NCBI RefSeq assembly: GCF_044324875.1
Contig: NZ_CP172185.1
DNA from: Escherichia coli
Lineage (GTDB): Bacteria; Pseudomonadota; Gammaproteobacteria; Enterobacterales; Enterobacteriaceae
DNA length: 64,000 bases
Direction: 5' to 3' (one strand)
Within the stretch, counting starts at the first letter, position 1. Each line of letters opens with the position of its first letter. Of the stretch, positions 9,868 through 59,807 are shown in pieces. The translations under genes were made by a program, and so were the position numbers. The notes under the pieces were generated by a model, which saw only the letters and a program-made list of their open reading frames with translations, searched no databases and was not told the origin of the DNA.

Positions 9868-9892
9868 CGATCAACTCGAATTGCTAACTTAA

Positions 9893-11788
<1,896 letters not shown>

Positions 11789-26054: not shown

Positions 26055-26084
26055 GCCGGATGAAACGTTAAGTCGTCATCCGGC
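26055..26084 (+). terminator. REP-like stem-loop downstream of parC
   Basis: gccggatga ... tcatccggc inverted repeat about 40 nt after the parC stop. Confidence 0.35.
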
Positions 26085-39953: not shown

Positions 39954-40517
<564 letters not shown>

Positions 40518-40524
40518 TCTGATT

Positions 40525-40550
40525 CGGGCGCGGTTCTCGCGCCCGTTATT
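40525..40550. terminator. Terminator hairpin between yqhA and gpr
   Basis: cgggcgcg-gttct-cgcgcccg hairpin followed by ttatt. Confidence 0.5.
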
Positions 40551-40556
40551 AACAGG

Positions 40557-41597
40557 TCATTTATCGGAAGACGCCTGCCACAGATTCAGCTCGCCATCGG
40601 CGATATGCTGATCAATCTGCGCCAGCTCCTCGGCACTGAATGCCAGGTTGTTTAACGCCTGCACGTTCTCTTCCAGTTGTTCCGGACGGCTGGCACCAAT
40701 CAACACCGAGGTGACGCGTTCATCTTTCAGCAACCAGCTTAACGCCATTTGCGCCATTGATTGTCCACGCTGCTGTGCCATTTCATTCAATAACCGCAGG
40801 CTGTTGAGGTTGGCTTCGGTGAGCATTTTCGGCGTCAGACCACGAACTTTATTCCCTTCACGATGCATCCGTGAATCTTGCGGAATACCGTTGAGATATT
40901 TTCCGGTCAGCAATCCCTGAGCCAGAGGAGTAAAGGCAATGCAGCCCACGCCGTTATGTTGCAGGGTATCCAGCAGGCCGCTTTTATCCACCCAGCGGTT
41001 CAGTAAATTGTACGAAGGTTGATGAATTAACAGCGGAATTTTCCACTCGCGCAGCAACTCGACCATTTTTTGCGTCCGCTCTGGCGAGTAAGAGGAGATC
41101 CCGACATAAAGCGCCTTACCGCTTTGTACCGCATGAGCCAGCGCAGAGGCGGTTTCTTCCATCGGCGTATTTTCATCGACGCGATGAGAGTAAAAGATAT
41201 CGACATACTCAAGCCCCATACGCTTCAGGCTTTGGTCGAGGCTGGCGAGCAGGTATTTACGTGAACCGCCAGAGCCGTAAGGGCCGGGCCACATATCGTA
41301 GCCAGCCTTGGTAGAGATAATCAGTTCATCGCGATAAGCGGCAAAATCCTCCCGCAGCAGGCGACCAAAGTTCTCTTCTGCGCTTCCTGGAGGCGGCCCG
41401 TAATTGTTGGCTAAATCAAAGTGCGTAATGCCTAAATCAAACGCTTTACGCAGGATCGCACGCTGTGATTCCAGCGCGTTAACGTGACCGAAATTGTGCC
41501 ATAAACCGAGCGATAACGCGGGCAGGCGTAAACCGCTTTTTCCGCAATAACGGTACTGCATCTGCCCGTAACGCTCGGGATTCGCTAACCAGACCAT
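40557..41597 (-). CDS. gpr: L-glyceraldehyde 3-phosphate reductase (aldo-keto reductase YghZ)
   Basis: 346-aa ORF; aldo-keto reductase family (Kv-beta-like). Confidence 0.9.
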   Translation of the reverse strand: MVWLANPERYGQMQYRYCGKSGLRLPALSLGLWHNFGHVNALESQRAILRKAFDLGITHFDLANNYGPPPGSAEENFGRLLREDFAAYRDELIISTKAGYDMWPGPYGSGGSRKYLLASLDQSLKRMGLEYVDIFYSHRVDENTPMEETASALAHAVQSGKALYVGISSYSPERTQKMVELLREWKIPLLIHQPSYNLLNRWVDKSGLLDTLQHNGVGCIAFTPLAQGLLTGKYLNGIPQDSRMHREGNKVRGLTPKMLTEANLNSLRLLNEMAQQRGQSMAQMALSWLLKDERVTSVLIGASRPEQLEENVQALNNLAFSAEELAQIDQHIADGELNLWQASSDK

Positions 41598-41753
41598 GAC
41601 CTCTCCTTTCCACCATTCAATTTCGAAACAATGTTTCTAGTTTAGCGATTCATCAGCGCGTATCCCGTAGTCTGGCTCACAGAGTGACGAAAAACTGGGC
41701 AAAAACACGCGCTTATGCTTTGCTTAAAAAAACACCAGTTGAGGAGTGCAACG

Positions 41754-42637
41754 ATGCCGCGTTTAACCGCCAAAGATTTCCCACAAGAGTTGCTGGATTA
41801 CTACGACTATTACGCTCACGGGAAAATCTCGAAACGTGAGTTCCTCAACCTTGCGGCGAAGTATGCGGTAGGCGGGATGACGGCATTAGCGTTGTTTGAT
41901 TTGCTCAAGCCAAATTATGCGCTGGCGACTCAGGTAGAGTTTACCGACCCGGAGATTGTTGCTGAGTACATCACGTATCCTTCACCAAATGGTCACGGCG
42001 AGGTACGGGGTTATCTGGTGAAGCCCGCAAAGATGAGCGGCAAAACGCCAGCCGTGGTGGTGGTGCATGAGAATCGTGGACTGAATCCGTATATCGAAGA
42101 TGTGGCACGGCGAGTGGCGAAGGCGGGGTATATCGCCCTGGCACCTGACGGCTTAAGTTCCGTTGGAGGTTATCCGGGTAATGATGATAAAGGTCGTGAG
42201 CTGCAACAGCAGGTTGATCCAACCAAACTGATGAATGATTTCTTTGCCGCAATTGAGTTTATGCAACGCTATCCGCTAGCGACAGGCAAAGTGGGTATTA
42301 CCGGATTTTGCTATGGCGGTGGCGTATCGAACGCGGCGGCTCGTATCCGGAACTGGCCTGCGCGGTGCCGTTTTATGGTCGACAGGCACCCACCGCCGAT
42401 GTGGCGAAGATTGAAGCGCCTTTACTACTCCACTACGCGGAACTGGACACCCGAATCAACGAGGGCTGGCCTGCTTACGAGGCGGCGTTGAAAGCCAATA
42501 ATAAGGTCTATGAGGCGTATATCTATCCGGGGGTTAATCACGGATTCCATAATGATTCCACGCCCCGTTATGACAAATCTGCCGCCGATCTTGCCTGGCA
42601 AAGGACGCTGAAATGGTTCGATAAATATCTCTCCTGA
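41754..42637 (+). pseudogene. yghX: Dienelactone hydrolase family gene yghX, frameshifted
   Basis: Two overlapping ORFs in different frames (41715..42491 and 42308..42637) together cover one dienelactone-hydrolase-like protein; the frame switches near 42336-42345 (..GGGVSNAAA then continuing as [12 protein letters not shown] in the other frame). Confidence 0.7.
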
Positions 42638-42755
42638 TAGGTTTATCTCTTACGGGATTACGTCTTAAACAAGCATGAAAAAATAGCGTGCGCAAAAGTC
42701 GTTCTTTGCCTAAAATATCGCTATATATGGCAATATATAGCGAATGAGGTGAACG

Positions 42756-43043
42756 ATGAATAACCATTTTGGTAAAGGCTTAATGGCGGGATTAAAAGCA
42801 ACGCATGCCGACAGTGCGGTTAATGTGACAAAATACTGTGCCGATTATAAACGCGGTTTTGTATTAGGCTACTCACACCGGATGTACGAAAAGACCGGAG
42901 ATCGCCAGCTTAGCGCCTGGGAAGCGGGTATTCTGACGCGCCGCTATGGACTGGATAAAGAGATGGTAATGGATTTCTTTCGTGAGAATAATTCCTGTTC
43001 TACGTTGCGCTTTTTTATGGCCGGTTATCGCCTCGAAAATTGA
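42756..43043 (+). CDS. yghW: DUF2623 protein YghW
   Basis: 95-aa ORF with a good RBS context, upstream of the hyb operon. Confidence 0.7.
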
Positions 43044-43231
43044 TCAAACATACGTATTATCTTGCTTTAATTAATTACACTAATGCTTCTTCCCTTCGTT
43101 TTAGCGCCCCGCCGCAGTATCATGATATCGATAACCATAATAAATGTGTGGTAAATGGCGCATCGATCGCATTATTGATTTTGCGATTGAGGCAAAATAT
43201 ATGCCAGGTCTTCGCAACGGAATAACTATAA

Positions 43232-44350
43232 ATGACTGGAGATAACACCCTCATCCATTCTCACGGCATTAACCGTCGTGATTTCATGAAGCTTTGTGCA
43301 GCATTAGCCGCCACCATGGGGTTAAGTAGCAAAGCCGCTGCAGAGATGGCCGAATCGGTTACTAACCCGCAGCGTCCGCCAGTTATCTGGATTGGCGCGC
43401 AGGAGTGCACCGGTTGTACGGAATCTCTGCTTCGTGCAACGCATCCAACGGTAGAAAACCTCGTGCTGGAGACTATCTCTCTGGAATATCACGAAGTGCT
43501 TTCCGCCGCCTTCGGTCATCAGGTCGAAGAGAACAAACATAACGCTCTCGAGAAGTACAAAGGGCAGTATGTGTTAGTGGTGGATGGTTCCATCCCATTA
43601 AAAGATAATGGTATTTATTGCATGGTTGCCGGTGAGCCGATTGTGGATCACATCCGCAAAGCGGCGGAAGGCGCAGCAGCCATTATCGCTATCGGTTCCT
43701 GCTCTGCGTGGGGCGGTGTTGCCGCGGCTGGGGTTAACCCAACTGGCGCGGTCAGTCTGCAAGAAGTTCTGCCAGGCAAAACTGTAATCAACATTCCTGG
43801 CTGCCCGCCGAACCCGCACAACTTCCTCGCGACCGTTGCGCACATCATCACTTACGGCAAACCACCGAAGCTGGATGATAAAAACCGTCCGACTTTCGCC
43901 TACGGTCGTCTGATTCACGAACACTGTGAACGTCGCCCGCACTTCGATGCTGGTCGCTTTGCGAAAGAGTTCGGCGACGAAGGCCACCGTGAAGGCTGGT
44001 GCCTGTACCACCTCGGCTGTAAAGGGCCAGAAACTTACGGCAACTGCTCAACGCTGCAATTCTGCGACGTTGGCGGCGTGTGGCCGGTGGCGATTGGTCA
44101 CCCGTGCTATGGCTGTAACGAAGAAGGTATCGGCTTCCATAAAGGCATCCATCAGCTTGCCAACGTCGAAAACCAGACTCCGCGTTCACAGAAACCGGAC
44201 GTTAACGCTAAAGAAGGCGGCAACGTCTCTGCAGGCGCTATTGGTTTGCTCGGCGGTGTGGTTGGGCTGGTTGCCGGTGTCAGCGTGATGGCGGTGCGTG
44301 AACTGGGTCGTCAGCAAAAGAAAGATAACGCTGACTCACGGGGAGAATAA
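43232..44350 (+). CDS. hybO: Hydrogenase 2 small subunit
   Basis: 372-aa ORF with Tat signal ([16 protein letters not shown]) and Fe-S cluster cysteine motifs. Confidence 0.95.
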
Positions 44351-44352
44351 CC

Positions 44353-45339
44353 GTGAACAGACGTAATTTTATCAAAGCAGCCTCCTGCGGGGCATTGCTG
44401 ACGGGCGCGTTGCCGTCTGTCAGTCATGCGGCTGCTGAAAACCGCCCGCCAATTCCGGGATCGCTGGGGATGTTGTACGACTCGACCTTGTGCGTTGGCT
44501 GCCAGGCTTGCGTCACCAAGTGTCAGGATATCAATTTCCCTGAACGTAACCCGCAAGGGGAACAGACCTGGTCGAACAACGACAAACTGTCGCCGTATAC
44601 CAATAACATCATTCAGGTGTGGACCAGCGGCACAGGGGTCAACAAAGACCAGGAAGAGAACGGCTACGCGTACATTAAGAAACAGTGTATGCACTGCGTC
44701 GATCCGAACTGTGTCTCCGTGTGTCCGGTCTCTGCGCTGAAAAAAGATCCGAAAACCGGCATTGTCCATTACGACAAAGATGTGTGCACTGGCTGCCGTT
44801 ACTGCATGGTCGCCTGCCCATACAACGTGCCGAAGTACGACTACAACAACCCATTTGGTGCGCTGCATAAGTGTGAACTGTGCAACCAGAAAGGTGTGGA
44901 ACGTCTTGATAAAGGCGGTCTGCCTGGCTGCGTAGAAGTGTGCCCGGCGGGCGCGGTGATTTTTGGTACGCGTGAAGAGCTGATGGCTGAGGCGAAAAAA
45001 CGTCTGGCGCTGAAGCCAGGCAGCGAATACCACTATCCGCGTCAGACGCTGAAATCTGGCGACACTTACCTGCATACGGTGCCGAAATATTATCCGCATC
45101 TGTACGGCGAGAAAGAGGGCGGCGGTACTCAGGTTCTGGTACTGACGGGTGTGCCTTATGAAAATCTCGACCTGCCGAAACTGGACGATCTTTCTACCGG
45201 TGCGCGTTCCGAAAATATTCAACACACCCTGTATAAAGGCATGATGCTACCACTGGCTGTGCTGGCGGGCTTAACCGTGCTGGTTCGTCGCAACACCAAA
45301 AACGACCATCACGACGGAGGAGACGATCATGAGTCATGA
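44353..45339 (+). CDS. hybA: Hydrogenase 2 ferredoxin-type 4Fe-4S subunit
   Basis: 328-aa ORF (GTG start) with several CxxCxxCxxxCP ferredoxin motifs and a twin-arginine N-terminus. Confidence 0.95.
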
Positions 45340-46507
45340 TCCACAACCGCTGGGCGGCAAAATCATCAGTAAACCGGTCATGATTTTTGGACCGTTAATC
45401 GTCATCTGTATGCTCCTGATTGTGAAGCGTCTGGTGTTCGGTCTGGGCTCTGTCTCTGACCTGAACGGCGGCTTCCCGTGGGGCGTGTGGATCGCGTTTG
45501 ACCTGCTGATTGGCACCGGCTTTGCCTGTGGCGGCTGGGCGCTGGCGTGGGCGGTATACGTCTTTAACCGTGGGCAATACCATCCGCTGGTGCGTCCGGC
45601 GCTGTTGGCGAGTCTGTTTGGTTACTCACTGGGTGGCTTGTCGATCACTATCGACGTGGGTCGCTACTGGAACCTGCCGTACTTCTACATTCCGGGTCAC
45701 TTCAACGTGAACTCGGTACTGTTCGAGACGGCGGTCTGTATGACCATCTATATCGGCGTGATGGCACTGGAGTTTGCTCCGGCACTGTTTGAACGTCTGG
45801 GCTGGAAGGTGTCGCTACAGCGTCTGAACAAGGTGATGTTCTTCATCATTGCACTTGGCGCGCTGCTGCCGACTATGCACCAGTCTTCAATGGGGTCGCT
45901 GATGATCTCGGCGGGCTACAAGGTGCATCCGTTGTGGCAGAGCTATGAAATGTTGCCGTTGTTCTCGCTGCTGACGGCGTTCATCATGGGCTTCTCGATT
46001 GTCATCTTTGAAGGTTCGCTGGTGCAGGCGGGTCTGCGTGGCAACGGTCCGGATGAAAAGAGTCTGTTCGTTAAGCTGACCAACACCATCAGTGTGTTGC
46101 TGGCGATTTTCATCGTGCTGCGCTTTGGCGAGCTTATCTATCGCGACAAGCTGTCGTTAGCGTTTGCCGGTGACTTCTATTCCGTGATGTTCTGGATTGA
46201 AGTCCTGCTGATGCTCTTCCCGCTGGTCGTTCTGCGTGTGGCGAAGCTGCGTAATGATTCCCGCATGCTGTTCCTGTCAGCACTGAGCGCGCTGTTAGGT
46301 TGTGCAACCTGGCGTCTGACCTATTCGCTGGTGGCATTCAACCCGGGCGGCGGTTACGCCTACTTCCCGACCTGGGAAGAACTGTTGATTTCTATTGGTT
46401 TTGTGGCTATTGAGATTTGCGCTTACATCGTACTCATTCGTCTACTGCCGATACTTCCTCCTTTAAAACAAAACGATCATAATCGTCATGAGGCGAGCAA
46501 AGCATGA
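45329..46507 (+). CDS. hybB: Hydrogenase 2 integral membrane subunit
   Basis: 392-aa polytopic membrane ORF overlapping hybA and hybC. Confidence 0.95.
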
Positions 46508-48207
46508 GCCAGAGAATTACTATTGATCCGGTAACCCGTATTGAGGGGCATTTACGCATCGATTGCGAAATCGAAAATGGCGTCGTTTCGAAAGCATGGG
46601 CTTCCGGTACCATGTGGCGCGGCATGGAAGAGATCGTGAAAAACCGCGATCCGCGCGATGCATGGATGATTGTGCAACGTATCTGTGGCGTATGTACTAC
46701 CACTCACGCGCTGTCTTCCGTTCGTGCGGCAGAAAGTGCGCTGAATATCGACGTTCCGGTTAACGCGCAATACATCCGTAACATCATTCTGGCTGCGCAC
46801 ACCACGCATGACCATATCGTTCATTTCTATCAACTTTCGGCGCTGGACTGGGTGGATATCACTTCTGCACTGCAAGCTGACCCAACCAAAGCCTCCGAAA
46901 TGCTGAAAGGCGTTTCGACCTGGCATCTGAACAGTCCGGAAGAGTTCACTAAAGTTCAGAACAAGATCAAAGATCTGGTTGCCAGCGGTCAGTTGGGAAT
47001 TTTCGCCAATGGCTACTGGGGTCACCCGGCGATGAAACTGCCGCCGGAAGTGAACCTGATTGCGGTAGCGCACTACCTGCAGGCGCTGGAGTGCCAGCGT
47101 GACGCTAACCGCGTCGTGGCGCTGCTGGGCGGTAAAACGCCGCACATTCAGAACCTGGCAGTAGGTGGGGTCGCTAACCCGATCAACCTCGACGGTCTGG
47201 GCGTGCTGAATCTTGAGCGTCTGATGTACATCAAGTCCTTCATCGACAAGCTGAGCGACTTTGTTGAGCAGGTTTATAAGGTTGATACCGCGGTTATCGC
47301 CGCGTTCTACCCGGAATGGCTGACGCGCGGTAAAGGTGCGGTGAACTACCTGAGCGTGCCGGAATTCCCGACCGACAGTAAAAACGGCAGCTTCCTGTTC
47401 CCGGGCGGCTACATTGAGAATGCGGATCTGTCCTCGTATCGTCCGATCACTTCTCATTCCGATGAATACCTGATCAAAGGCATTCAGGAAAGCGCGAAGC
47501 ACTCCTGGTATAAAGACGAAGCGCCGCAGGCACCGTGGGAAGGTACCACCATTCCGGCTTATGATGGTTGGTCTGACGACGGTAAATACTCCTGGGTGAA
47601 ATCACCGACTTTCTACGGCAAAACGGTAGAAGTGGGGCCGCTGGCTAACATGCTGGTGAAACTGGCGGCAGGTCGCGAATCTACCCAGAATAAACTGAAT
47701 GAAATCGTTGCGATTTATCAGAAACTGACTGGCAACACGCTGGAAGTGGCGCAGCTGCACTCCACGCTGGGCCGTATTATTGGTCGTACCGTTCACTGCT
47801 GCGAATTGCAGGATATCCTGCAAAATCAATACAGTGCACTGATCACCAATATCGGCAAAGGCGATCACACCACCTTCGTGAAACCGAACATTCCGGCAAC
47901 GGGTGAGTTCAAAGGTGTTGGCTTCCTCGAAGCGCCGCGCGGTATGCTCTCTCACTGGATGGTGATCAAAGACGGTATCATCAGCAACTACCAGGCAGTT
48001 GTTCCATCAACCTGGAACTCTGGCCCGCGTAACTTCAATGATGACGTCGGTCCTTACGAGCAGTCGTTGGTGGGTACACCGGTTGCTGATCCGAATAAAC
48101 CGCTGGAAGTGGTGCGTACCATTCACTCCTTCGATCCGTGCATGGCCTGTGCGGTACACGTAGTGGATGCCGACGGCAACGAAGTGGTTTCAGTGAAGGT
48201 TCTGTAA
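46504..48207 (+). CDS. hybC: Hydrogenase 2 [NiFe] large subunit
   Basis: 567-aa ORF with N-terminal RICGVCTTTH and C-terminal DPCMACAVH nickel-binding motifs. Confidence 0.95.
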   Translation: MSQRITIDPVTRIEGHLRIDCEIENGVVSKAWASGTMWRGMEEIVKNRDPRDAWMIVQRICGVCTTTHALSSVRAAESALNIDVPVNAQYIRNIILAAHTTHDHIVHFYQLSALDWVDITSALQADPTKASEMLKGVSTWHLNSPEEFTKVQNKIKDLVASGQLGIFANGYWGHPAMKLPPEVNLIAVAHYLQALECQRDANRVVALLGGKTPHIQNLAVGGVANPINLDGLGVLNLERLMYIKSFIDKLSDFVEQVYKVDTAVIAAFYPEWLTRGKGAVNYLSVPEFPTDSKNGSFLFPGGYIENADLSSYRPITSHSDEYLIKGIQESAKHSWYKDEAPQAPWEGTTIPAYDGWSDDGKYSWVKSPTFYGKTVEVGPLANMLVKLAAGRESTQNKLNEIVAIYQKLTGNTLEVAQLHSTLGRIIGRTVHCCELQDILQNQYSALITNIGKGDHTTFVKPNIPATGEFKGVGFLEAPRGMLSHWMVIKDGIISNYQAVVPSTWNSGPRNFNDDVGPYEQSLVGTPVADPNKPLEVVRTIHSFDPCMACAVHVVDADGNEVVSVKVL

Positions 48208-48701
48208 TGCGTATTTTAGTCTTAGGGGTTGGCAATATTTTGCTGACCGATGAAGCCATCGGTGTGCGGATTGTCGAAGCGTTAGAGCAACGATATATTC
48301 TGCCGGATTATGTTGAGATCCTCGATGGCGGCACGGCGGGAATGGAGCTGCTTGGCGACATGGCAAATCGCGATCATCTGATCATTGCGGATGCCATTGT
48401 GTCGAAGAAGAGCGCGCCGGGAACGATGATGATCCTGCGGGATGAAGAAGTTCCGGCGTTGTTTACCAACAAAATCTCTCCGCATCAGCTTGGCCTGGCC
48501 GACGTATTGTCGGCCCTGCGCTTCACCGGTGAGTTTCCGAAAAAGCTGACCCTGGTCGGCGTGATCCCGGAATCGCTGGAGCCACACATCGGCTTAACGC
48601 CGACGGTTGAAGCAATGATTGAACCTGCGCTTGAGCAGGTTCTGGCTGCGCTGCGCGAATCAGGCGTGGAAGCCATCCCACGGGAGGCGACTCATGACTG
48701 A
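48207..48701 (+). CDS. hybD: Hydrogenase 2 maturation endopeptidase
   Basis: ORF 48138..48701 trimmed to MRILVLGVGNILLTDE (164 aa); start overlaps the hybC stop (TAATG). Confidence 0.9.
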   Translation: MRILVLGVGNILLTDEAIGVRIVEALEQRYILPDYVEILDGGTAGMELLGDMANRDHLIIADAIVSKKSAPGTMMILRDEEVPALFTNKISPHQLGLADVLSALRFTGEFPKKLTLVGVIPESLEPHIGLTPTVEAMIEPALEQVLAALRESGVEAIPREATHD

Positions 48702-49182
48702 AGAGATAGCAGGTTTCCAGACCTCCCCGAAGGCGCAAGTACAGGCAGCTTTTGAAGAAATTGCCCGGCGTTCGATGCATGATCTCTCTTTTCTGCATCC
48801 TTCAATGCCGGTGTATGTTTCTGACTTTACGCTGTTCGAAGGTCAGTGGACGGGGTGTGTGATCACCCCGTGGATGCTGAGTGCAGTTATCTTCCCCGGC
48901 CCGGATCAACTCTGGCCGCTGCGCAAAGTGAGTGAAAAAATTGGTCTGCAACTGCCGTATGGCACCATGACCTTTACCGTTGGCGAACTGGACGGTGTTT
49001 CGCAATACCTCTCCTGCTCGCTGATGTCGCCGCTTTCGCACAGCATGTCGATTGAAGAGGGCCAACGCCTGACGGATGACTGCGCACGAATGATCCTTTC
49101 GCTGCCAGTCACGAATCCGGATGTACCACACGCAGGGCGTCGCGCCCTGCTGTTTGGCCGCAGGAGTGGCGAAAATGCATGA
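48694..49182 (+). CDS. hybE: Hydrogenase 2-specific chaperone
   Basis: ORF 48619..49182 trimmed to MTEEIAGFQTSPKAQ (162 aa). Confidence 0.85.
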   Translation: MTEEIAGFQTSPKAQVQAAFEEIARRSMHDLSFLHPSMPVYVSDFTLFEGQWTGCVITPWMLSAVIFPGPDQLWPLRKVSEKIGLQLPYGTMTFTVGELDGVSQYLSCSLMSPLSHSMSIEEGQRLTDDCARMILSLPVTNPDVPHAGRRALLFGRRSGENA

Positions 49183-49516
49183 GTTGTCGCTTTGCCAGAG
49201 CGCCGTTGAAATTATCCAACGGCAGGCGGAGCAGCACGATGTTAAGCGCGTCACCGCCGTGTGGCTGGAAATTGGCGCGCTCTCCTGCGTTGAGGAGAGC
49301 GCCGTCCGTTTTAGTTTTGAAATTGTCTGCCACGGAACGGTGGCGCAAGGGTGCGATTTACATATCGTCTATAAACCCGCCCAGGCCTGGTGCTGGGATT
49401 GCAGCCAGGTGGTGGAGATTCATCAGCACGATGCGCAGTGTCCGCTCTGTCATGGCGAGCGGTTGCGTGTCGATACCGGCGATTCGCTGATCGTCAAAAG
49501 TATTGAAGTTGAATAA
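49175..49516 (+). CDS. hybF: Hydrogenase nickel-incorporation protein (HypA-like)
   Basis: ORF 49121..49516 trimmed to MHELSLCQSAVEI (113 aa); zinc-finger CxxC pairs. Confidence 0.9.
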   Translation: MHELSLCQSAVEIIQRQAEQHDVKRVTAVWLEIGALSCVEESAVRFSFEIVCHGTVAQGCDLHIVYKPAQAWCWDCSQVVEIHQHDAQCPLCHGERLRVDTGDSLIVKSIEVE

Positions 49517-49528
49517 CCGGAGTTAACA

Positions 49529-49777
49529 ATGTGTATTGGCGTTCCAGGCCAGGTGCTGGCTGTCGGTGAGGATATTCACCAGCTTGCGCAGGTTGAAGTA
49601 TGTGGTATCAAGCGCGACGTGAATATCGCCCTGATTTGTGAAGGTAACCCTGCCGATCTGCTGGGCCAGTGGGTGCTGGTACACGTCGGATTTGCCATGA
49701 GCATCATCGACGAAGATGAAGCCAAAGCCACATTAGACGCGCTGCGCCAAATGGATTACGACATTACCAGCGCGTGA
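49529..49777 (+). CDS. hybG: Hydrogenase maturation chaperone (HypC-like)
   Basis: 82-aa ORF beginning MCIGVPGQV, the characteristic HypC/HybG N-terminus. Confidence 0.9.
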
Positions 49778-49785
49778 TGATTAAA

Positions 49786-49819
49786 GCCGGATGCGGCGTA
49801 AATGCTTTATCCGGCTACA
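49786..49819. repeat. REP (repetitive extragenic palindromic) element
   Basis: gccggatgcggcgtaaatgctttatccggctaca matches the canonical E. coli REP unit; lies between the hybG and yghU stops. Confidence 0.6.
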
Positions 49820-49846
49820 TAGCGATAAGCCTGCCAATGTTGCGAC

Positions 49847-50713
49847 TTACCCCTGACGCTTATCTTCCGTATTCGTCTCAAAATCACTGGCGTCATGGCG
49901 CTCATGCAACTGCTCGTTCAGCGGCCCGTTGGTGCGGTTAACAATACGCCCACGCTTCACCGCCGGACGTTCGCCCACTTCTTTCGCCCAGCGTTGTACG
50001 TGTTTATAACTTCCCGCATCCAGAAACTCTGCGGCATCATACACGCCGCCTAACACCACGTTGCCAAACCACGGCCAAATCGCCATATCCGCAATGGTGT
50101 ACTCATCGCCCGCAACAAACTTATGCTGCGCCAGTTGCTTATCCAGCACGTCGAGCAGGCGCTTGGCTTCCATGGTAAAGCGATTGATGGCGTACTCAAT
50201 TTTCACCGGCGCGTAATGGTAAAAGTGACCAAAACCACCGCCGAGAAACGGCGCAGCACCCTGTAACCAGAACAACCAGTTCATTGCTTCAGTACGCTTT
50301 GCCAGATCCTGCGGCAGGAAGTAGCCAAATTTCTCCGCCAGATAAAGCAGAATCGATCCAGACTCAAACACGCGGATCGGCGGATTATGCGTATGATCGC
50401 GCAGCGCCGGGATCTTCGAGTTTGGGTTTACTTCGACAAAACCGCTGGAGAATTGATCGCCATCGCCTATGCGTATCAGCCAGGCATCGTACTCTGCGCC
50501 AGTAACGCCCAGCTCCAGCAGCTCCTCAAGCATAATCGTTACTTTCTGACCGTTCGGCGTTCCCAGCGAATAGAGTTGCAGCGGATGTTTGCCCACCGGC
50601 AGCGTTTTTTCATGCGTCGGACCAGAAACCGGGCGATTGATATTGGCGAACGCGCCGCCAGCGGATTTATCCCACGTCCAGACTTTCGCGGGCTGATAAG
50701 TATTGTCTGTCAT
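49847..50713 (-). CDS. yghU: Glutathione S-transferase-like disulfide reductase YghU
   Basis: ORF 49847..50761 trimmed to MTDNTYQPAKVWTWD (288 aa); Nu-class GST-like. Confidence 0.9.
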   Translation of the reverse strand: MTDNTYQPAKVWTWDKSAGGAFANINRPVSGPTHEKTLPVGKHPLQLYSLGTPNGQKVTIMLEELLELGVTGAEYDAWLIRIGDGDQFSSGFVEVNPNSKIPALRDHTHNPPIRVFESGSILLYLAEKFGYFLPQDLAKRTEAMNWLFWLQGAAPFLGGGFGHFYHYAPVKIEYAINRFTMEAKRLLDVLDKQLAQHKFVAGDEYTIADMAIWPWFGNVVLGGVYDAAEFLDAGSYKHVQRWAKEVGERPAVKRGRIVNRTNGPLNEQLHERHDASDFETNTEDKRQG

Positions 50714-50917
50714 AGTGAGTTGCCTTCTCAGTGGTAGTGTTGAAGCAGTGTAGCAGGTCACTTGCTGTACAGAATGTGAATTTTTTAACCCTTTGCGCCA
50801 GCCGCTGCGATGAGGTGTATGATTAGTCTGACCTCTGTCCGGTTAATGTCGCTGAGCAGGTAATCAGAGCACAACAATTACGCCAACTGCTTAGGTTGTA
50901 TTGTTAAAGGTAAAGTG

Positions 50918-52777
50918 ATGAGCAAAGGAACGACCAGCCAGGATGCCCCGTTCGGGACATTATTGGGCTACGCCCCAGGTGGGGTAGCAATCTACTCTTC
51001 AGATTACAGTTCTCTCGATCCGCAGGAATACGAAGATGACGCCGTATTCCGTAGCTATATCGACGACGAATATATGGGCCACAAATGGCAATGCGTTGAA
51101 TTTGCTCGCCGTTTTCTCTTTCTGAATTACGGTGTGGTCTTTACTGACGTGGGTATGGCGTGGGAGATTTTCTCGCTGCGCTTCCTGCGTGAAGTGGTTA
51201 ATGACAACATCCTGCCATTGCAGGCATTTCCTAATGGCTCGCCGCGTGCACCGGTCGCGGGCGCGCTTCTTATCTGGGATAAAGGCGGTGAATTTAAAGA
51301 CACTGGCCATGTCGCCATCATTACCCAATTGCATGGCAACAAAGTCCGTATTGCGGAACAGAACGTGATTCATTCCCCGTTACCGCAAGGGCAACAGTGG
51401 ACACGCGAGCTGGAGATGGTGGTCGAAAACGGCTGCTATACCCTTAAAGACACGTTTGATGACACCACCATTCTGGGCTGGATGATCCAGACGGAAGATA
51501 CTGAATACAGCTTACCGCAGCCGGAAATTGCAGGCGAGCTGCTGAAAATCAGCGGAGCGCGCCTGGAAAACAAAGGTCAGTTTGACGGTAAATGGCTGGA
51601 TGAAAAAGATCCGCTACAAAACGCCTATGTGCAGGCCAACGGTCAGGTGATCAATCAGGATCCGTATCATTACTACACCATTACCGAGAGTGCCGAGCAG
51701 GAGCTGATTAAAGCCACCAACGAACTGCACCTGATGTATCTTCACGCCACCGACAAGGTGCTGAAAGATGACAACCTGCTGGCGCTGTTCGACATTCCGA
51801 AAATCCTTTGGCCACGTTTGCGTCTCTCCTGGCAGCGTCGCCGTCACCATATGATCACCGGTCGTATGGATTTCTGTATGGACGAACGTGGCCTGAAGGT
51901 CTACGAATACAACGCCGATTCCGCCTCCTGTCATACCGAAGCGGGCTTGATCCTCGAACGTTGGGCGGAGCAGGGCTATAAAGGCAACGGCTTCAATCCG
52001 GCGGAAGGGCTGATTAACGAACTGGCCGGTGCCTGGAAACACAGTCGTGCACGTCCGTTTGTCCATATCATGCAGGACAAAGATATCGAGGAAAACTATC
52101 ACGCGCAGTTTATGGAGCAGGCGCTGCACCAGGCGGGCTTTGAAACGCGTATCTTGCGCGGGCTGGATGAACTGGGCTGGGATGCTGCCGGGCAACTGAT
52201 TGATGGGGAAGGGCGACTGGTTAACTGCGTGTGGAAAACCTGGGCGTGGGAAACCGCGTTTGATCAGATTCGTGAAGTTAGCGACCGTGAGTTTGCTGCG
52301 GTGCCGATCCGTACCGGTCATCCGCAAAATGAAGTGCGTCTTATCGACGTATTGCTGCGCCCGGAAGTGCTGGTCTTTGAACCTCTGTGGACAGTGATCC
52401 CCGGCAACAAAGCGATTCTGCCGATCCTCTGGTCGCTGTTCCCGCACCATCGTTACCTGCTGGATACTGATTTCACTGTTAATGATGAACTGGTAAAAAC
52501 AGGTTACGCAGTGAAACCGATCGCCGGTCGCTGTGGCAGTAACATCGACCTCGTCAGCCATCATGAAGAGGTGCTGGACAAAACCAGCGGTAAATTTGCC
52601 GAGCAGAAAAACATCTATCAGCAACTGTGGTGTTTGCCGAAAGTGGACGGTAAATACATTCAGGTATGTACCTTCACCGTTGGCGGCAACTACGGTGGGA
52701 CGTGTTTGCGCGGTGATGAATCACTGGTCATTAAAAAAGAGAGTGATATTGAACCGTTAATTGTGGTGAAAGAGTAA
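50918..52777 (+). CDS. gss: Bifunctional glutathionylspermidine synthetase/amidase
   Basis: ORF 50915..52777 with start taken at MSKGTTSQDAPFG (619 aa); N-terminal CHAP amidase and C-terminal ATP-grasp synthetase. Confidence 0.95.
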   Translation: MSKGTTSQDAPFGTLLGYAPGGVAIYSSDYSSLDPQEYEDDAVFRSYIDDEYMGHKWQCVEFARRFLFLNYGVVFTDVGMAWEIFSLRFLREVVNDNILPLQAFPNGSPRAPVAGALLIWDKGGEFKDTGHVAIITQLHGNKVRIAEQNVIHSPLPQGQQWTRELEMVVENGCYTLKDTFDDTTILGWMIQTEDTEYSLPQPEIAGELLKISGARLENKGQFDGKWLDEKDPLQNAYVQANGQVINQDPYHYYTITESAEQELIKATNELHLMYLHATDKVLKDDNLLALFDIPKILWPRLRLSWQRRRHHMITGRMDFCMDERGLKVYEYNADSASCHTEAGLILERWAEQGYKGNGFNPAEGLINELAGAWKHSRARPFVHIMQDKDIEENYHAQFMEQALHQAGFETRILRGLDELGWDAAGQLIDGEGRLVNCVWKTWAWETAFDQIREVSDREFAAVPIRTGHPQNEVRLIDVLLRPEVLVFEPLWTVIPGNKAILPILWSLFPHHRYLLDTDFTVNDELVKTGYAVKPIAGRCGSNIDLVSHHEEVLDKTSGKFAEQKNIYQQLWCLPKVDGKYIQVCTFTVGGNYGGTCLRGDESLVIKKESDIEPLIVVKE

Positions 52778-52792
52778 TACATGTTGTAGCAA

Positions 52793-52826
52793 CCCTGCAC
52801 TGATTATGAAGAATAATCAGTGCAGG
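52793..52826 (+). terminator. Perfect 15-bp inverted repeat immediately downstream of gss
   Basis: ccctgcactgattat-gaag-ataatcagtgcaggg; the T-tract after it is weak (attaatcaaaat), so terminator function is uncertain. Confidence 0.45.
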
Positions 52827-53068
52827 GATTAATCAAAATATTCAATATTTATATATTCCAATATTTATTCATTTCATATGTGAATGTATTAACCAGTGGA
52901 ATACCTGTGTTTTGATTATTTCTAAAGGTTTTGAATGAATGCTTATTATCTGATACACAAGAAATAACACGCTTTTTATCGTTAAAAAATGATATTTCAC
53001 TTTGCCCACGCCGTTAAAGTCACTGATAATGCGTCCGTTCGTAAATTCAAAATGGCGTAATCTAATAT

Positions 53069-54568
53069 ATGCTAAATTTATTTGTTGGCCTTGATATATA
53101 CACGGGGCTTTTGTTATTACTTGCTCTGGCATTTGTGTTGTTCTACGAAGCAATCAATGGTTTTCATGATACGGCGAATGCGGTGGCAACCGTTATTTAT
53201 ACTCGTGCCATGCAACCACAACTTGCTGTGGTGATGGCGGCATTTTTTAACTTTTTTGGCGTATTGCTAGGCGGACTTAGCGTTGCCTATGCCATTGTCC
53301 ATATGTTGCCAACCGATTTGTTGCTGAATATGGGGTCAACTCACGGCCTGGCGATGGTCTTTTCCATGCTGCTGGCGGCGATTATCTGGAACCTGGGAAC
53401 GTGGTTCTTTGGTTTACCGGCCTCCAGTTCGCATACCTTGATTGGTGCGATTATCGGCATCGGTTTAACCAACGCGCTGTTAACCGGCTCATCGGTGATG
53501 GATGCGTTAAACCTGCGTGAAGTGACCAAAATTTTCTCCTCGCTGATTGTTTCCCCTATCGTCGGCCTGGTCATTGCGGGAGGTCTGATATTCCTGCTGC
53601 GCCGCTACTGGAGCGGGACGAAAAAGCGTGACCGTATTCACCGCATTCCGGAAGATCGCAAAAAGAAAAAAGGCAAACGTAAGCCACCATTCTGGACGCG
53701 TATTGCGCTGATTGTTTCCGCTGCGGGCGTGGCGTTTTCGCACGGCGCGAACGACGGGCAGAAAGGGATCGGCCTGGTGATGCTGGTACTGGTGGGGATT
53801 GCTCCTGCTGGTTTCGTCGTCAATATGAATGCGTCCGGCTATGAAATTACCCGTACCCGCGATGCCGTCACCAACTTTGAACACTATCTGCAACAGCATC
53901 CTGAACTGCCGCAGAAGTTAATTGCGATGGAACCTCCATTGCCTGCGGCATCGACTGATGGCACGCAAGTAACGGAGTTTCATTGTCATCCGGCAAATAC
54001 CTTTGATGCGATTGCGCGCGTTAAAACGATGTTGCCAGGTAATATGGAAAGCTACGAGCCGTTAAGCGTGAGTCAGCGCAGCCAGCTGCGCCGCATTATG
54101 CTGTGCATCTCTGATACCTCTGCGAAGCTGGCGAAACTGCCAGGCGTCAGTAAAGAAGATCAGAACCTGCTGAAAAAACTGCGCAGCGATATGTTAAGCA
54201 CCATTGAGTACGCTCCGGTGTGGATCATCATGGCGGTAGCACTGGCGCTCGGCATTGGTACCATGATTGGCTGGCGTCGTGTAGCGATGACCATCGGTGA
54301 GAAGATTGGTAAGCGCGGCATGACGTATGCGCAAGGGATGGCGGCGCAGATGACGGCGGCGGTATCTATCGGCCTTGCCAGTTATATTGGGATGCCTGTT
54401 TCCACAACACACGTCCTCTCGTCTGCGGTAGCAGGGACGATGGTGGTGGACGGCGGTGGGTTACAGCGTAAAACGGTAACCAGCATCCTGATGGCGTGGG
54501 TGTTTACTTTACCGGCGGCGATTTTTCTGTCTGGTGGGTTGTACTGGATAGCATTGCAGTTGATTTAA
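53069..54568 (+). CDS. pitB: Low-affinity inorganic phosphate transporter (PiT family)
   Basis: 499-aa polytopic membrane ORF with PiT-family motifs (GANDGQKG); preceded by an AT-rich upstream region. Confidence 0.9.
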
Positions 54569-54577
54569 CCTTCCTGA

Positions 54578-54615
54578 AAATGCCCGGTCCTGGCGATCGG
54601 GCATTTCCATTTTTG
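54578..54615. terminator. Bidirectional terminator between pitB and yghT
   Basis: atgcccg ... cgggcat hairpin followed by ttccattttt. Confidence 0.5.
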
Positions 54616-54616
54616 G

Positions 54617-55309
54617 CTAGTGATAACCACGCGCGGTCATAAAATCCGTAATCGCTTTTTCTGCATCAACCAGCACCTTTTCCAGTGGCTGATTGGCATC
54701 GATATCAACCAGTTGTGCACCACCAAAGGTTAACTGTGGCGTTATTGCAATCTTCCTCGCCAGCGATTCCCGTTTATGGTCGGGTTTACGCGCGCAGGCA
54801 ACTTCAAGGTCAACATTGAGTTTGATGACCAGATCAGGTTTATGGCTCGCCATCCAGTGAAACGCTTTACGTTCCTGGCTTGCCAGCCATGAGACAAACC
54901 GGCCGCCTTCAACGTTAGGCGGGAACACTGTACCATCGTAAGCGCCAGGAATTTGGTCCTGAGGATAACGGTCGGTTAGAACAATTAACCCGCGACGACG
55001 ACAGGCAAGCATATGACGAAAGCGCAGTAAGCGACGGGCGACAAACGCTGTAATTACCAGCGCCGGAACAGGGCCAGGCAATTTTTTTGCTGTTTTCACC
55101 TGATTTCGTTCAATTGTTTTATGTAAGGATTTTCCCATCAACGGTAATTTTGTCACTGCACGACCGACATTTCCGGCCTGTTTTCCTAAATGAACTCTTT
55201 CGGCTGCACCATATTTTTCGACAACGGTAATGAGATGTTCACACACCGTTGACTTGCCTGAACCATCGCTACCAATAACGGCAATTAATGGAGGTGTTAT
55301 TGACTGCAT
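54617..55309 (-). CDS. yghT: P-loop NTPase of unknown function YghT
   Basis: 230-aa ORF with Walker A (GSDGSGKST) and hydrophobic-Asp Walker-B-like LTDRYPQ; paralog of the next two genes. Confidence 0.8.
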
Positions 55310-55389
55310 GAATATATCCTTTAATTTAAATATCCATTAAAAATATTTATTTGGTTAATATGTTTTTATGAAAGCGTAATTCAGGTCAA

Positions 55390-55414
55390 TGTCACAATTA
55401 ACCATTGTCACAAT
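55390..55414. promoter_or_regulatory. Direct repeat TGTCACAAT x2 in the yghT/yghS divergent promoter region
   Basis: tgtcacaat at about 55390-55398 and 55406-55414 within an AT-rich divergent intergenic region; candidate operator. Confidence 0.3.
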
Positions 55415-55482
55415 AAGGTTGAACGGATATTCTGAGCACGGACCACGTAATATTCAATACATTATTTGCTGCCGGGTTTTTC

Positions 55483-56196
55483 GTGAATCAACGTAATATG
55501 TCAATAATTAATTCCACGCCAGTGCGTGTTATTGCCATTGTAGGATGTGATGGTTCAGGTAAATCGACCCTCACGGCAAGCCTGGTAAATGAACTGGCAG
55601 CAAGAATGCCAACAGAACACATTTATCTCGGGCAATCGTCCGGGCGAATTGGCGAATGGATTTCACAGCTCCCTGTTATTGGCGCACCTTTTGGGCGTTA
55701 TCTGCGAAGTAAAGCGGCACATGTGCACGAAAAGCCCTCAACACCGCCTGGCAATATTACTGCGCTGGTTATCTATCTGCTTTCCTGCTGGCGGGCGTAT
55801 AAGTTTCGCAAAATGTTGTGTAAAAGCCAGCAAGGCTATCTGCTCATCACCGACCGCTACCCGCAGGTTGAAGTGCCGGGTTTTCGCTTTGATGGCCCGC
55901 AATTGGCAAAAACCACGGGCGGTAACGGTTGGATAAAAATGTTAAGGCAGCGCGAGCTGAAGCTGTACCAATGGATGGCGTCTTATTTGCCCGTATTGTT
56001 GATTCGTCTTGGCATTGATGAACAAACGGCGTTTGCGCGTAAACCTGACCACCAACTGGCGGCGTTACAGGAAAAAATCGCCGTTACGCCGCAACTGACA
56101 TTCAATGGCGCAAAGATCCTTGAACTGGATGGTCGGCAACCAGCCGATGAAATTATGCAAGCGTCACTACGCGCAATTCACGCCGCGCTTTCCTGA
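55483..56196 (+). CDS. yghS: P-loop NTPase of unknown function YghS
   Basis: 237-aa ORF with Walker A (GCDGSGKST) and ITDRYPQ; paralog of yghT and yghR. Confidence 0.8.
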   Translation: MNQRNMSIINSTPVRVIAIVGCDGSGKSTLTASLVNELAARMPTEHIYLGQSSGRIGEWISQLPVIGAPFGRYLRSKAAHVHEKPSTPPGNITALVIYLLSCWRAYKFRKMLCKSQQGYLLITDRYPQVEVPGFRFDGPQLAKTTGGNGWIKMLRQRELKLYQWMASYLPVLLIRLGIDEQTAFARKPDHQLAALQEKIAVTPQLTFNGAKILELDGRQPADEIMQASLRAIHAALS

Positions 56197-56227
56197 TCAC
56201 CAAAATGGATAGGGGATGATTTAACGA

Positions 56228-56986
56228 ATGGATGCACTACAAACACAAACTGTTAATAGTACAACCGCGCCGCAGCCCAACTACATTCCGGGGCTGATTG
56301 CGGTGGTCGGGTGTGATGGCACCGGTAAATCCACGCTGACCACCGACCTGGTGAAATCGCTGCAACAACACTGGCAAACCGAGCGCCGCTATCTGGGGCT
56401 GCTCTCCGGCGAAGACGGCGACAAAATCAAACGATTGCCGTTGGTTGGCGTCTGGCTGGAACGGCGACTGGCGGCCAAATCCTCGAAAACCCAAAGCATG
56501 AAAACCAAATCTCCAGCGCTATGGGCGGCGGTGATTATGTACTGCTTCTCGCTGCGAAGAATGGCGAATCTACGCAAGGTTCAGCGACTGGCGCAAAGTG
56601 GCGTTCTGGTGGTCAGCGATCGCTTCCCGCAGGCTGAAATTTCGGGCTTTTATTATGACGGACCGGGGATCGGCGTCGAACGTGCGACCGGGAAAATCAG
56701 CATGTTTCTGGCGCAGCGCGAACGGCGTTTATACCAAAAAATGGCGCAATACCGTCCTGAATTAATCATTCGTTTGGGGATTGATATTGATACTGCCATC
56801 TCCCGCAAGCCTGACCATGACTATGCCGAGCTGCAGGACAAAATCGGCGTCATGTCGACGATTGGCTATAACGGCACAAAAATTCTTGAGATTGATTCCA
56901 GAGCGCCCTACAGCGAAGTGCTGGAACAGGCACAGAAGGCGGTTTCTCTGGTTGCCATCGTTTCTGACCGCCGAAGTTTAACTTAA
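56228..56986 (+). CDS. yghR: P-loop NTPase of unknown function YghR
   Basis: 252-aa ORF with Walker A (GCDGTGKST) and VSDRFPQ; third paralog. Confidence 0.8.
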   Translation: MDALQTQTVNSTTAPQPNYIPGLIAVVGCDGTGKSTLTTDLVKSLQQHWQTERRYLGLLSGEDGDKIKRLPLVGVWLERRLAAKSSKTQSMKTKSPALWAAVIMYCFSLRRMANLRKVQRLAQSGVLVVSDRFPQAEISGFYYDGPGIGVERATGKISMFLAQRERRLYQKMAQYRPELIIRLGIDIDTAISRKPDHDYAELQDKIGVMSTIGYNGTKILEIDSRAPYSEVLEQAQKAVSLVAIVSDRRSLT

Positions 56987-57031
56987 GGCTGGCGGGATAC
57001 TTTTTACTATCAACGATAAGGTCAGGCTGAA

Positions 57032-58381
57032 TTGGCGGGTTTTAACATCAAACATTGGTTTGCAGATGGCGCGTTTCGCACCATTATTCGCAATAGCGCC
57101 TGGTTAGGCTCCAGTAATGTCGTGAGCGCCTTGCTGGGTCTGTTGGCGCTCTCGTGTGCCGGTAAAGGGATGACGCCCGCCATGTTTGGCGTACTGGTGA
57201 TTGTGCAATCGTACGCCAAGTCGATCAGCGATTTTATTAAGTTTCAGACATGGCAGTTGGTGGTGCAGTACGGAACACCAGCATTAACCAACAATAATCC
57301 ACAGCAATTCCGCAATGTCGTCTCATTTTCCTTCTCGCTGGATATCGTCAGCGGCGCGGTGGCGATTGTCGGCGGCATTGCCTTACTCCCTTTTCTTTCC
57401 CATTCATTAGGTCTGGATGACCAAAGCTTTTGGCTGGCAGCGCTGTATTGCACGCTCATTCCTTCAATGGCTTCCTCCACGCCGACCGGCATTCTGCGTG
57501 CGGTAGATCGCTTCGACTTAATTGCTGTACAGCAGGCGACGAAACCTTTTCTGCGCGCAGCGGGGAGCGTCGTTGCCTGGTATTTTGACTTTGGTTTTGC
57601 GGGTTTTGTTATTGCCTGGTACGCCTCGAATCTTGTTGGCGGCACCATGTACTGGTGGTTTGCCGCACGTGAATTACGCCGCAGAAATATCCATAACGCG
57701 TTCAAATTGAATCTGTTTGAGTCTGCCCGACACATCAAAGGCGCGTGGAGTTTTGTCTGGTCAACCAACATTGCCCATTCCATCTGGTCGGCGCGTAATT
57801 CGTGCAGCACAGTGTTGGTGGGGATCGTGTTAGGACCCGCTGCCGCCGGGTTATTTAAAATCGCCATGACATTCTTCGACGCCGCCGGAACGCCAGCGGG
57901 TTTACTGGGCAAAAGTTTTTACCCAGAGGTGATGCGTTTAGATCCGCGTACCACCAGACCGTGGTTGTTAGGCGTGAAGTCAGGTTTACTGGCGGGCGGA
58001 ATCGGTATTCTGGTGGCGCTCGCGGTGTTGATCGTCGGCAAGCCGCTCATTTCGCTGGTGTTTGGCGTTAAGTATCTCGAAGCGTATGACCTGATTCAGG
58101 TGATGCTGGGCGCAATTGTGATCTCGATGCTGGGCTTCCCTCAGGAGTCATTGCTATTGATGGCGGGAAAACAGCGCGCTTTTCTCGTGGCGCAAACCAT
58201 CGCCTCAATCGGCTACATCGTATTGCTGTTCATGTTCTGTCATCTGTTTGGCGTGCTGGGGGCTGCATTTGCTTACTTCGGTGGGCAATGTCTGGATGTG
58301 GTGTTCTCGCTAATTCCGACCTTAAAGGCATTTTTTCAGCGCCATTCCTTGCTTTATAACTCAGCCGGAGAGAAATCCTGA
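57032..58381 (+). CDS. yghQ: Polytopic inner membrane protein, Wzx/MOP-flippase-like (YghQ)
   Basis: 449-aa ORF, hydrophobic throughout with many predicted transmembrane segments; the ORF-track start is a TTG, so the true start may be an internal ATG (for example about 57170). Confidence 0.7.
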   Translation: MAGFNIKHWFADGAFRTIIRNSAWLGSSNVVSALLGLLALSCAGKGMTPAMFGVLVIVQSYAKSISDFIKFQTWQLVVQYGTPALTNNNPQQFRNVVSFSFSLDIVSGAVAIVGGIALLPFLSHSLGLDDQSFWLAALYCTLIPSMASSTPTGILRAVDRFDLIAVQQATKPFLRAAGSVVAWYFDFGFAGFVIAWYASNLVGGTMYWWFAARELRRRNIHNAFKLNLFESARHIKGAWSFVWSTNIAHSIWSARNSCSTVLVGIVLGPAAAGLFKIAMTFFDAAGTPAGLLGKSFYPEVMRLDPRTTRPWLLGVKSGLLAGGIGILVALAVLIVGKPLISLVFGVKYLEAYDLIQVMLGAIVISMLGFPQESLLLMAGKQRAFLVAQTIASIGYIVLLFMFCHLFGVLGAAFAYFGGQCLDVVFSLIPTLKAFFQRHSLLYNSAGEKS

Positions 58382-59217
58382 TGATGAGAAAATATTTCCC
58401 GCTTGAGGCGAGCGAGCGTCTATTTGTTGCGATTGAAGAAGATGATGTTGTTGATGCACAGGTCAGTTTGCCGCCGACTATCGCACTAAGTTGTACCACC
58501 GAAATCATCCATGATAATTACGCGTTATGCCTGCAATTCTGGCTCAATGGCGTCAATCGCCAGGAGTTACTGCGTTTAATATGCAAACAGGCCAAAGGCG
58601 ATGAGCTGACTGCTGATGAGCGCAAACAATTTAAATACATGCGAGCGCGCTACAAGCACCTGCGTTTTGCGCAACGGCTGTATTTAAAAAAGCATCAGGC
58701 CGGATTTTTATTCGGCAAAACGACCGTTTTTTTGGGGCGTTTTCAGGACGGCTTTCGTAACGGTAAGAAAAATATTGTGTCGTATTACGGCAACCTGTTA
58801 CGGGTTTATTTAAGCTCTCCGGTCTGGTCGTTGGTGAACTATTCATTACGCCATAGCCAGTTAGAAAGCGTAAGCGGTTTTATTGCCTATCGGCAAAAGC
58901 AAATGCATACCCTGAAAGAGATAATTGCCAAACCGCGACTAACTGGCAGGGAATTTCATGATGTGCGAAAAATCATCAGCCAGCAGGTTTCTTATTACGA
59001 CACCTTAAGATCGCTTGATCCTGAAAATAAAGAGGCGTTACTGATTTCCCGTTTTCTCGCCGCCATTAATGGTCTGATGGGGGATAAGCACGACGACATG
59101 GTGGCGGATGATATGGAAAACCGCCAGTCGTATGATGCACCGGTGGCGCTGGATAGCGATATTCGCCAGCGTTTAGAACTGCTGATTTCGCGTTTCCCAC
59201 TCTATCCGGAGCAATAA
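58381..59217 (+). CDS. Hypothetical soluble protein (no recognised domain)
   Basis: 278-aa ORF whose ATG overlaps the yghQ stop (ATGA) and whose stop overlaps the next start (TAATG); no transmembrane segment or signal peptide seen. Confidence 0.6.
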   Translation: MMRKYFPLEASERLFVAIEEDDVVDAQVSLPPTIALSCTTEIIHDNYALCLQFWLNGVNRQELLRLICKQAKGDELTADERKQFKYMRARYKHLRFAQRLYLKKHQAGFLFGKTTVFLGRFQDGFRNGKKNIVSYYGNLLRVYLSSPVWSLVNYSLRHSQLESVSGFIAYRQKQMHTLKEIIAKPRLTGREFHDVRKIISQQVSYYDTLRSLDPENKEALLISRFLAAINGLMGDKHDDMVADDMENRQSYDAPVALDSDIRQRLELLISRFPLYPEQ

Positions 59218-59777: not shown

Positions 59778-59807
59778 AAAATTCAAAGGATTGAGGGCGT
59801 TAGCGAG

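Follow-up and report, generated by a model that had tools for sequence, protein, structure and literature searches.

Between the convergent genes hybG and yghU, the 64,000-nucleotide stretch of Escherichia coli DNA analysed here (the window) carries a single diverged y-type repetitive extragenic palindrome (REP), standing alone at a locus where REPs have been gained, lost and recombined repeatedly between strains. We regard this identification as practically certain. The element, a 34-nt imperfect palindrome at positions 49786–49819 (GCCGGATGCGGCGTAAATGCTTTATCCGGCTACA), is an ordinary and already-known one with nothing new in kind. Combined with the role at the 3' end of hyb mRNA that is set out below, the identification makes up the best explanation of this sequence, and taken as a whole that explanation is, in our judgement, likely to be correct.

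The REP is extragenic, lying wholly inside the 69-nt spacer that separates the two genes. The TGA of hybG is followed by a gap of 8 nt to the REP (7 nt to the first base pair in the predicted fold), and a further 27 nt lie between the GTAG end of the REP and the yghU stop codon. Gene names follow the RefSeq annotation of those E. coli genomes that match the window at 100% identity across 49650–49950, and the gene order around the REP (hybOABCDEFG, then yghU on the opposite strand, gss and pitB) is the same as in E. coli. The coordinates of the features are collected in Table 1.

Table 1. Features of the hybG–yghU spacer and its flanking genes, in window coordinates.
Feature	Position	Strand	Description
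hybG	49529–49777	+	Stop TGA 49775–49777; 82-aa ORF; last gene of the hybOABCDEFG operon; hydrogenase maturation factor
yghU	49847–50713	-	Stop 49847–49849; ORF and RefSeq annotation (4-base offset between locus sequence L014 and the window allowed for); glutathione-dependent disulfide-bond oxidoreductase
y-type REP (palindromic unit), single	49786–49819		+ strand (hyb-sense) is the iREP form ending CTAC; - strand (yghU-sense) is the REP form starting GTAG
Predicted stem-loop in hyb mRNA	49786–49815	+	Lower stem 49786–49793 : 49808–49815; bulge 49794, 49807; upper stem 49795–49797 : 49804–49806; loop 49798–49803 GUAAAU; from RNA fold
AAAT in REP loop	49800–49803		Site of IS1397-family insertion in other strains with the window allele; duplicated
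CTAC foot	49815–49818	+	GTAG on the other strand; 1 nt deeper in the stem than in the consensus
Right flank of REP	49820–49846		Diverged counterpart of the sequence after the distal y unit in BIME-type alleles

As a reference we used the y consensus, an imperfect palindrome of about 35 nt (GTAGGCCGGATAAGGCGTTCACGCCGCATCCGGCA), and numbered the window REP as the y REP of the TnpA-REP studies (PMC3333891, PMC8266576). Within the window, Hamming and blastn-short scans gave 27 of 30 positions identical to this consensus (E = 2e-5). Set against the full 35 nt, the window copy carries three substitutions in the upper stem and loop (G14A, G17A and C20T) and has lost G5. Position-by-position comparison showed that GTAG, T11, the A12A13/G26C27 bulge and G32 are all kept; these are the determinants named in earlier work on REPs (PMC3333891, PMC8266576), in which GTAG has a role in TnpA-REP binding (PMC3333891). 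Because the loss of G5 turns GGCCTAC into GGCTAC, the CTAC/GTAG foot moves 1 nt deeper into the stem, a shift that may impair recognition of the unit by TnpA-REP (RAYT). At the level of sequence, the window copy thus has every defining feature of a y-type REP that we tested, with this one deviation. The initial annotation had described a canonical REP between convergent hybG and yghU, ordinary for E. coli, and its position, palindrome, gene names and convergent layout were all upheld. That such an element is ordinary in E. coli agrees both with the consensus match and with the spread of the 35-mer family consensus, which 5,425 of the 5,426 complete E. coli genomes contain, each having 8 to more than 40 near-exact copies (the upper figure being a lower bound). 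‘Canonical’, on the other hand, is too strong a word for what is a y-type REP but also a single diverged unit with three substitutions and a 1-nt deletion.

E. coli genomes contain hundreds of REP copies, which the TnpA-REP (RAYT) transposase is thought to have spread. Pattern, Hamming and blastn-short scans found no further REP in the 64-kb window. A strict full-length consensus pattern with a fixed 5-nt loop gave 0 matches and missed even the target itself, its spacing being too rigid, and the tail pattern CTTATCMGGCCTAC misses the window REP because of the 1-nt deletion; diverged single units such as this one escape strict REP consensus patterns. Across the complete E. coli genomes, the exact window variant is found at a median of one place per genome, and is essentially single-locus. 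The initial annotation named a lack of further copies as its refutation, and the outcome of that check turns on whether the exact variant or the abundant family is counted as the motif. Two sets of candidates elsewhere in the window were rejected. Extra matches to the half-REP 13-mer at 29660, 38845 and 62887 have no REP palindrome, are coding-like in appearance and are attributed to chance. A hairpin in the parC–plsC spacer (26055–26084, GCCGGATGAAACGTTAAGTCGTCATCCGGC) is stable on both strands (-17.2 kcal/mol on the + strand and -18.1 on the - strand, z ~ -3.4 to -4.1) and is not followed by a T-run; its likeness to REPs is confined to the outer stem GCCGGATG/CATCCGGC.

That no second REP occurs in the window, and that the sole Rfam match to the palindrome is naRNA4 (RF02564), might be taken to mean that we are dealing with a chance palindrome or with an naRNA4 member and not with a REP. 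Rfam holds no REP family, and the naRNA4 model consists of two hairpins, the first of which matches the y-REP consensus used here. The model aligns to the - strand of 49786–49816 (E = 0.003–0.009) and scores 28.1 bits, where the gathering score is 59.5; its second hairpin is forced onto the hybG coding sequence. Since only hairpin 1 aligns cleanly, the match is independent confirmation of a single y-type unit, and membership in naRNA4 is ruled out. The consensus identity, the kept determinants and the IS1397 insertions described below all point to a REP, and we consider both the chance and the naRNA4 readings effectively refuted.

The REP had also been taken to confirm an Escherichia background. 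The background is indeed correct, on the evidence of the flanking genes; the REP alone is no proof of E. coli, as the same unit types are found at the hybG–yghU locus in E. albertii, E. whittamii and other Escherichia species. Over positions 40000–60000, the best match among the 5,426 complete E. coli genomes is 99.0% identical to the window, and the differences are distributed as a mosaic, with 2 mismatches over 46–51 kb and up to 52 per kb at 59–60 kb, a pattern typical of what recombination would be expected to leave.

Comparison of the spacer across genomes revealed two main alleles. The single-unit allele of the window occurs in 802 of the 5,426 complete E. coli genomes (~15%) at a coverage of at least 80%; about 70 more carriers gave split or partial matches, and the four of these that were examined break at the REP loop. 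Across 852 genomes the window-type allele is at least 99% identical. A two-unit, BIME-type allele is present in 4,528 of the 5,426 genomes (~83%), K-12 included, a count that takes in variant forms such as the M16807 type. In K-12 MG1655 the spacer measures 122 nt and holds an inverted z2 unit, a linker and then a y unit. A BIME comprises at least two REPs in alternating orientation with a linker, and the window, with its single unit, contains none. Other arrangements also exist: strain M16807 has a left half-remnant of the hybG-proximal unit (AAAGCCGGATGC) followed by z2 and y, E. albertii has a half-remnant of the same unit in the form AAAGCCGGAGGC, again followed by z2 and y, and Escherichia sp. 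MOD1-EC7003 has eight units, the first of which directly follows TGATGATTAAA, as in the window, in a cluster that runs into a truncated yghU.

Several details of these spacers deserve mention in their own right. In MOD1-EC7003 (positions 9781–10230 of locus sequence L012), the units are ordered y'-z2-y-y'-z2-y'-z2-y and are joined to internal yghU sequence, such that the 3' end of yghU has apparently been lost. In Escherichia sp. E1V33 (locus sequence L011, ~90–200 nt past the hybG stop), the z2 unit is followed by a different palindromic repeat, CCCCTCACACTAACCCTCTCCCCGAAGGGGCGAGGGGAC, apparently similar to the enterobacterial boxC repeat. The K-12 y unit (locus sequence L002) is without its CTAC tail, reading GGCC followed directly by TGGATGG where A21 and M16807 read GGCCTACATTGGTC[G/T]GGATGG, a 10-nt difference. 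The K-12 y unit at hybG–yghU is thus decayed as well, in a different manner from the window copy.

Two histories fit the single unit of the window. Recombination between two y units in the same orientation could have deleted the intervening z2, or the single unit could be original and the clusters a product of later growth. On its left, the window unit has the flank of the hybG-proximal unit; on its right, the sequence is similar to that bordering the distal y unit (alignment score 8.5, shuffle mean 3.7, with 3 of 500 shuffles reaching 8.5). The REP body differs by three mismatches from each candidate partner unit and so favours neither history. Variation between strains in the number of REP units at a locus has already been described (PMC3333891), and the hybG–yghU spacer is a hot-spot of such REP rearrangement. 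REPs found at one locus in different strains are not necessarily the same unit.

The spacer has been visited by insertion sequences as well. IS1397 is an IS3-family element for which REP-specific insertion in E. coli was demonstrated experimentally, according to the summary in PMC1525189. In Ecol_881 (locus sequence L008, ~765–2205), which has the window-type allele, an IS3-family element occupies the REP loop; over the 545 nt compared, it shares 98% identity with a copy annotated as IS1397-family. Its junctions read GCGGCGTAAAT joined to TGAACTGCACC and GGGGTTCAGTTCA joined to AAATGCTTTATCCGGC, with AAAT duplicated, so placed that it is seen at both. NRZ14408 (locus sequence L009, from ~2236) carries an IS1397-family element at the same loop site in the opposite orientation, and there must therefore have been at least two independent insertions. 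Both of the IS-split window-type carriers that were fetched (of the four examined at the break) have the element in the loop. That IS1397-family elements enter the loop of the window allele implies that the REP-specific transposase still accepts this copy as a REP despite its divergence. An IS1397-family element is also found in the y-unit loop of a K-12-type allele, in Survcare321 (locus sequence L006, from ~808); the REP downstream of hybG is thus a recurrent IS1397 target, hit in several strains, in either orientation and in each of the two spacer alleles. The spacer as a whole offers a small, well-populated natural case of REP and BIME gain, loss and IS1397 targeting, and because natural strains supply intact, two-unit and IS-split versions, ideas about REP function could be tried out on it.

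These same observations bear on whether the unit does anything at all. It might be no more than what is left of a selfish REP/BIME cluster, decaying neutrally and of no consequence to the cell, and we think this quite conceivable, if not the reading that we would choose. The three substitutions and the deletion that shifts GTAG would suit such a remnant, as would the lack of a partner unit, given that most K-12 REPs are paired (84 of the 584 reported are single; PMC3333891). Other arrangements prevail in ~83% of genomes, some carriers of the window allele are split by an IS, and the combination of a left flank like that of the proximal unit with a right flank like that of the distal one is what would be expected had REP–REP recombination deleted the middle. 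Yet a stable hairpin of any kind, placed where an operon ends, impedes exonucleases somewhat (PMC6061677), and the near-identity of the allele in 852 genomes also argues against neutral decay, though recent common ancestry may explain it. From the prevalence of other arrangements and the existence of IS-split carriers it follows that any function of the REP at this locus is either generic or dispensable, and we found no evidence that the hybG–yghU locus needs this particular REP sequence.

As + strand RNA, the 34-mer folds into a hairpin of -17.8 kcal/mol, a stability that none of 200 dinucleotide-preserving shuffles attained (z = -4.1). This is weaker than the fold of the consensus y unit (-21.3 kcal/mol), and as - strand, yghU-sense RNA the window unit reaches only -12.9 kcal/mol. 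An intrinsic (Rho-independent) terminator was considered and rejected: a scan of the spacer on both strands found no such site, and there is no U-tract, as no T-run follows the hairpin on the + strand. On the - strand, a weak U-tract, UUUAAU, comes after the stem. Outside the spacer, the coding sequence of yghU contains two overlapping terminator-like matches (50236–50253, - strand); with 2 found against 1.2 expected, they are probably meaningless.

A stable hairpin between convergent genes, with the weak U-tract on its - strand side, could nonetheless be imagined as a bidirectional terminator that separates the hyb and yghU transcripts, all the more so as REPs are reported to facilitate Rho-dependent termination (PMC2817692). 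The empty spacer scan and the missing + strand T-run weigh against this, and so does the behaviour of K-12, whose transcripts pass a stronger, two-unit BIME in both directions. In a bicyclomycin-based data set for K-12 MG1655 (PMC7815308, supplementary file 2), a hyb-sense Rho termination region at 3139530 (- strand; score 3.3, p = 8e-7) lies antisense to yghU, ~186 nt past the hybG stop and beyond the REPs, and a yghU-sense region at 3139969 (+ strand; score 4.2, p = 9e-6) lies antisense to hybG/hybF. As both Rho regions lie beyond the REPs, each in its own direction, even the two-unit BIME must be read through both ways. These data come from a BIME-type allele and apply to the window allele by analogy; with them in view, we think a bidirectional terminator unlikely. 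Read-through in K-12 is thus convergent, with hyb-sense RNA running antisense into yghU and yghU-sense RNA running antisense across hybG until Rho stops them. Each of the two genes may therefore interfere with the transcripts of the other.

The role that we prefer for the REP is at the 3' end of hyb mRNA. The initial annotation had likewise marked a possible stabilizing site for the hyb transcript, a plausible suggestion that corresponds to the textbook role of REPs and fits the K-12 Rho data. RNA polymerase leaving hybG would read through the REP because it meets no U-tract, and Rho would terminate hyb transcription further downstream, within antisense yghU. The 3'-to-5' exonucleases PNPase and RNase II would then trim the transcript back to the REP hairpin, which would in this way come to form the stable 3' end of hyb mRNA. 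There is precedent, for Rho-dependent E. coli transcripts end just past U-less stem-loops that block PNPase and RNase II, and annotated REPs make up 24% of these structures (PMC6061677). For hybG, no 3' end appears in the Term-seq tables of K-12; the likely reason is that these data are aerobic, whereas expression of hyb is anaerobic. The literature that we searched did not name hybG and yghU together. On the analogy with K-12, we lean somewhat towards this sequence of read-through, Rho termination and trimming as the mechanism.

In the nrdAB case of Liang, Rudd and Deutscher from 2015, a REP close to the stop codon is said to lower translation. As quoted from Liang et al. (2015) in PMC12306157, REPs less than 16 nt from a stop codon reduce translation by ribosome stalling. 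At the end of hybG, the terminating ribosome would likewise have to unwind the REP hairpin near the stop codon, and if it stalled there the output of HybG would fall. Such a translational attenuator is compatible with a stabilizing role at the mRNA end. The stem begins 7–8 nt past the hybG TGA, and the K-12 allele is also within the limit, at 12–15 nt. Speaking against attenuation, the window hairpin is weaker than the consensus, and hybG is not among the entries of the RepRanger supplements that we searched; we hold it to be possible but doubtful.

The distance from the hybG stop to the start of the hairpin thus varies between alleles, being 7–8 nt in the single-unit allele and 12–15 nt in the BIME allele, and in the IS1397-split alleles no intact hairpin is left. 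One could go further and see in the REP arrangement after hybG a natural cis-regulatory polymorphism, by which lineages would vary both in how far ribosomes stall at the hybG stop and in the stability of the hyb mRNA 3' end. Were that so, lineages would differ in their capacity for hydrogenase-2 maturation, but we consider the idea improbable. The REP of the window belongs, as a routine copy, to one of the most familiar families of bacterial repeats, and such effects as it is likely to have are those found in textbooks; in itself it matters very little.

Set beside known systems, the window element is first of all a y-type REP in the Gilson and Bachellier nomenclature, equivalent to the y REP of Ton-Hoang et al. 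(2012), with which it shares its length class, lower stem, T11, G32, bulge, GTAG/CTAC foot, extragenic site and targeting by IS1397. It departs from the y-type consensus in that G14A, G17A and C20T weaken its upper stem and the loss of G5 pulls GTAG 1 nt inward, and from a typical y-type REP in that no other locus holds a near-identical copy. The z2–y BIME of K-12 MG1655 occupies the same locus between the same flanking genes, with its y unit in the same orientation. That BIME has two units, a 122-nt spacer and a y unit without the CTAC tail, whereas in the window a single unit lies in a spacer of 69 nt; moreover, the window unit directly follows TGATGATTAAA, a point at which K-12 has no REP unit. 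The REPs that protect mRNA 3' ends provide a functional comparison. In the work of Newbury et al. in 1987, the malE–malF REP hairpin reportedly protects an mRNA 3' end. With malE–malF and with the genome-wide set of such REPs (Dar and Sorek, 2018), the window copy shares a stable stem-loop that lacks a U-tract and closes an operon, and termination by Rho downstream has been mapped in its K-12 counterpart; it differs from them as a single unit with a weaker hairpin, known here from sequence and fold. Finally, among stop-proximal REPs of the nrdAB type, which lie within 15 nt of the upstream stop codon, the window REP at 7–8 nt is a candidate case by its distance.
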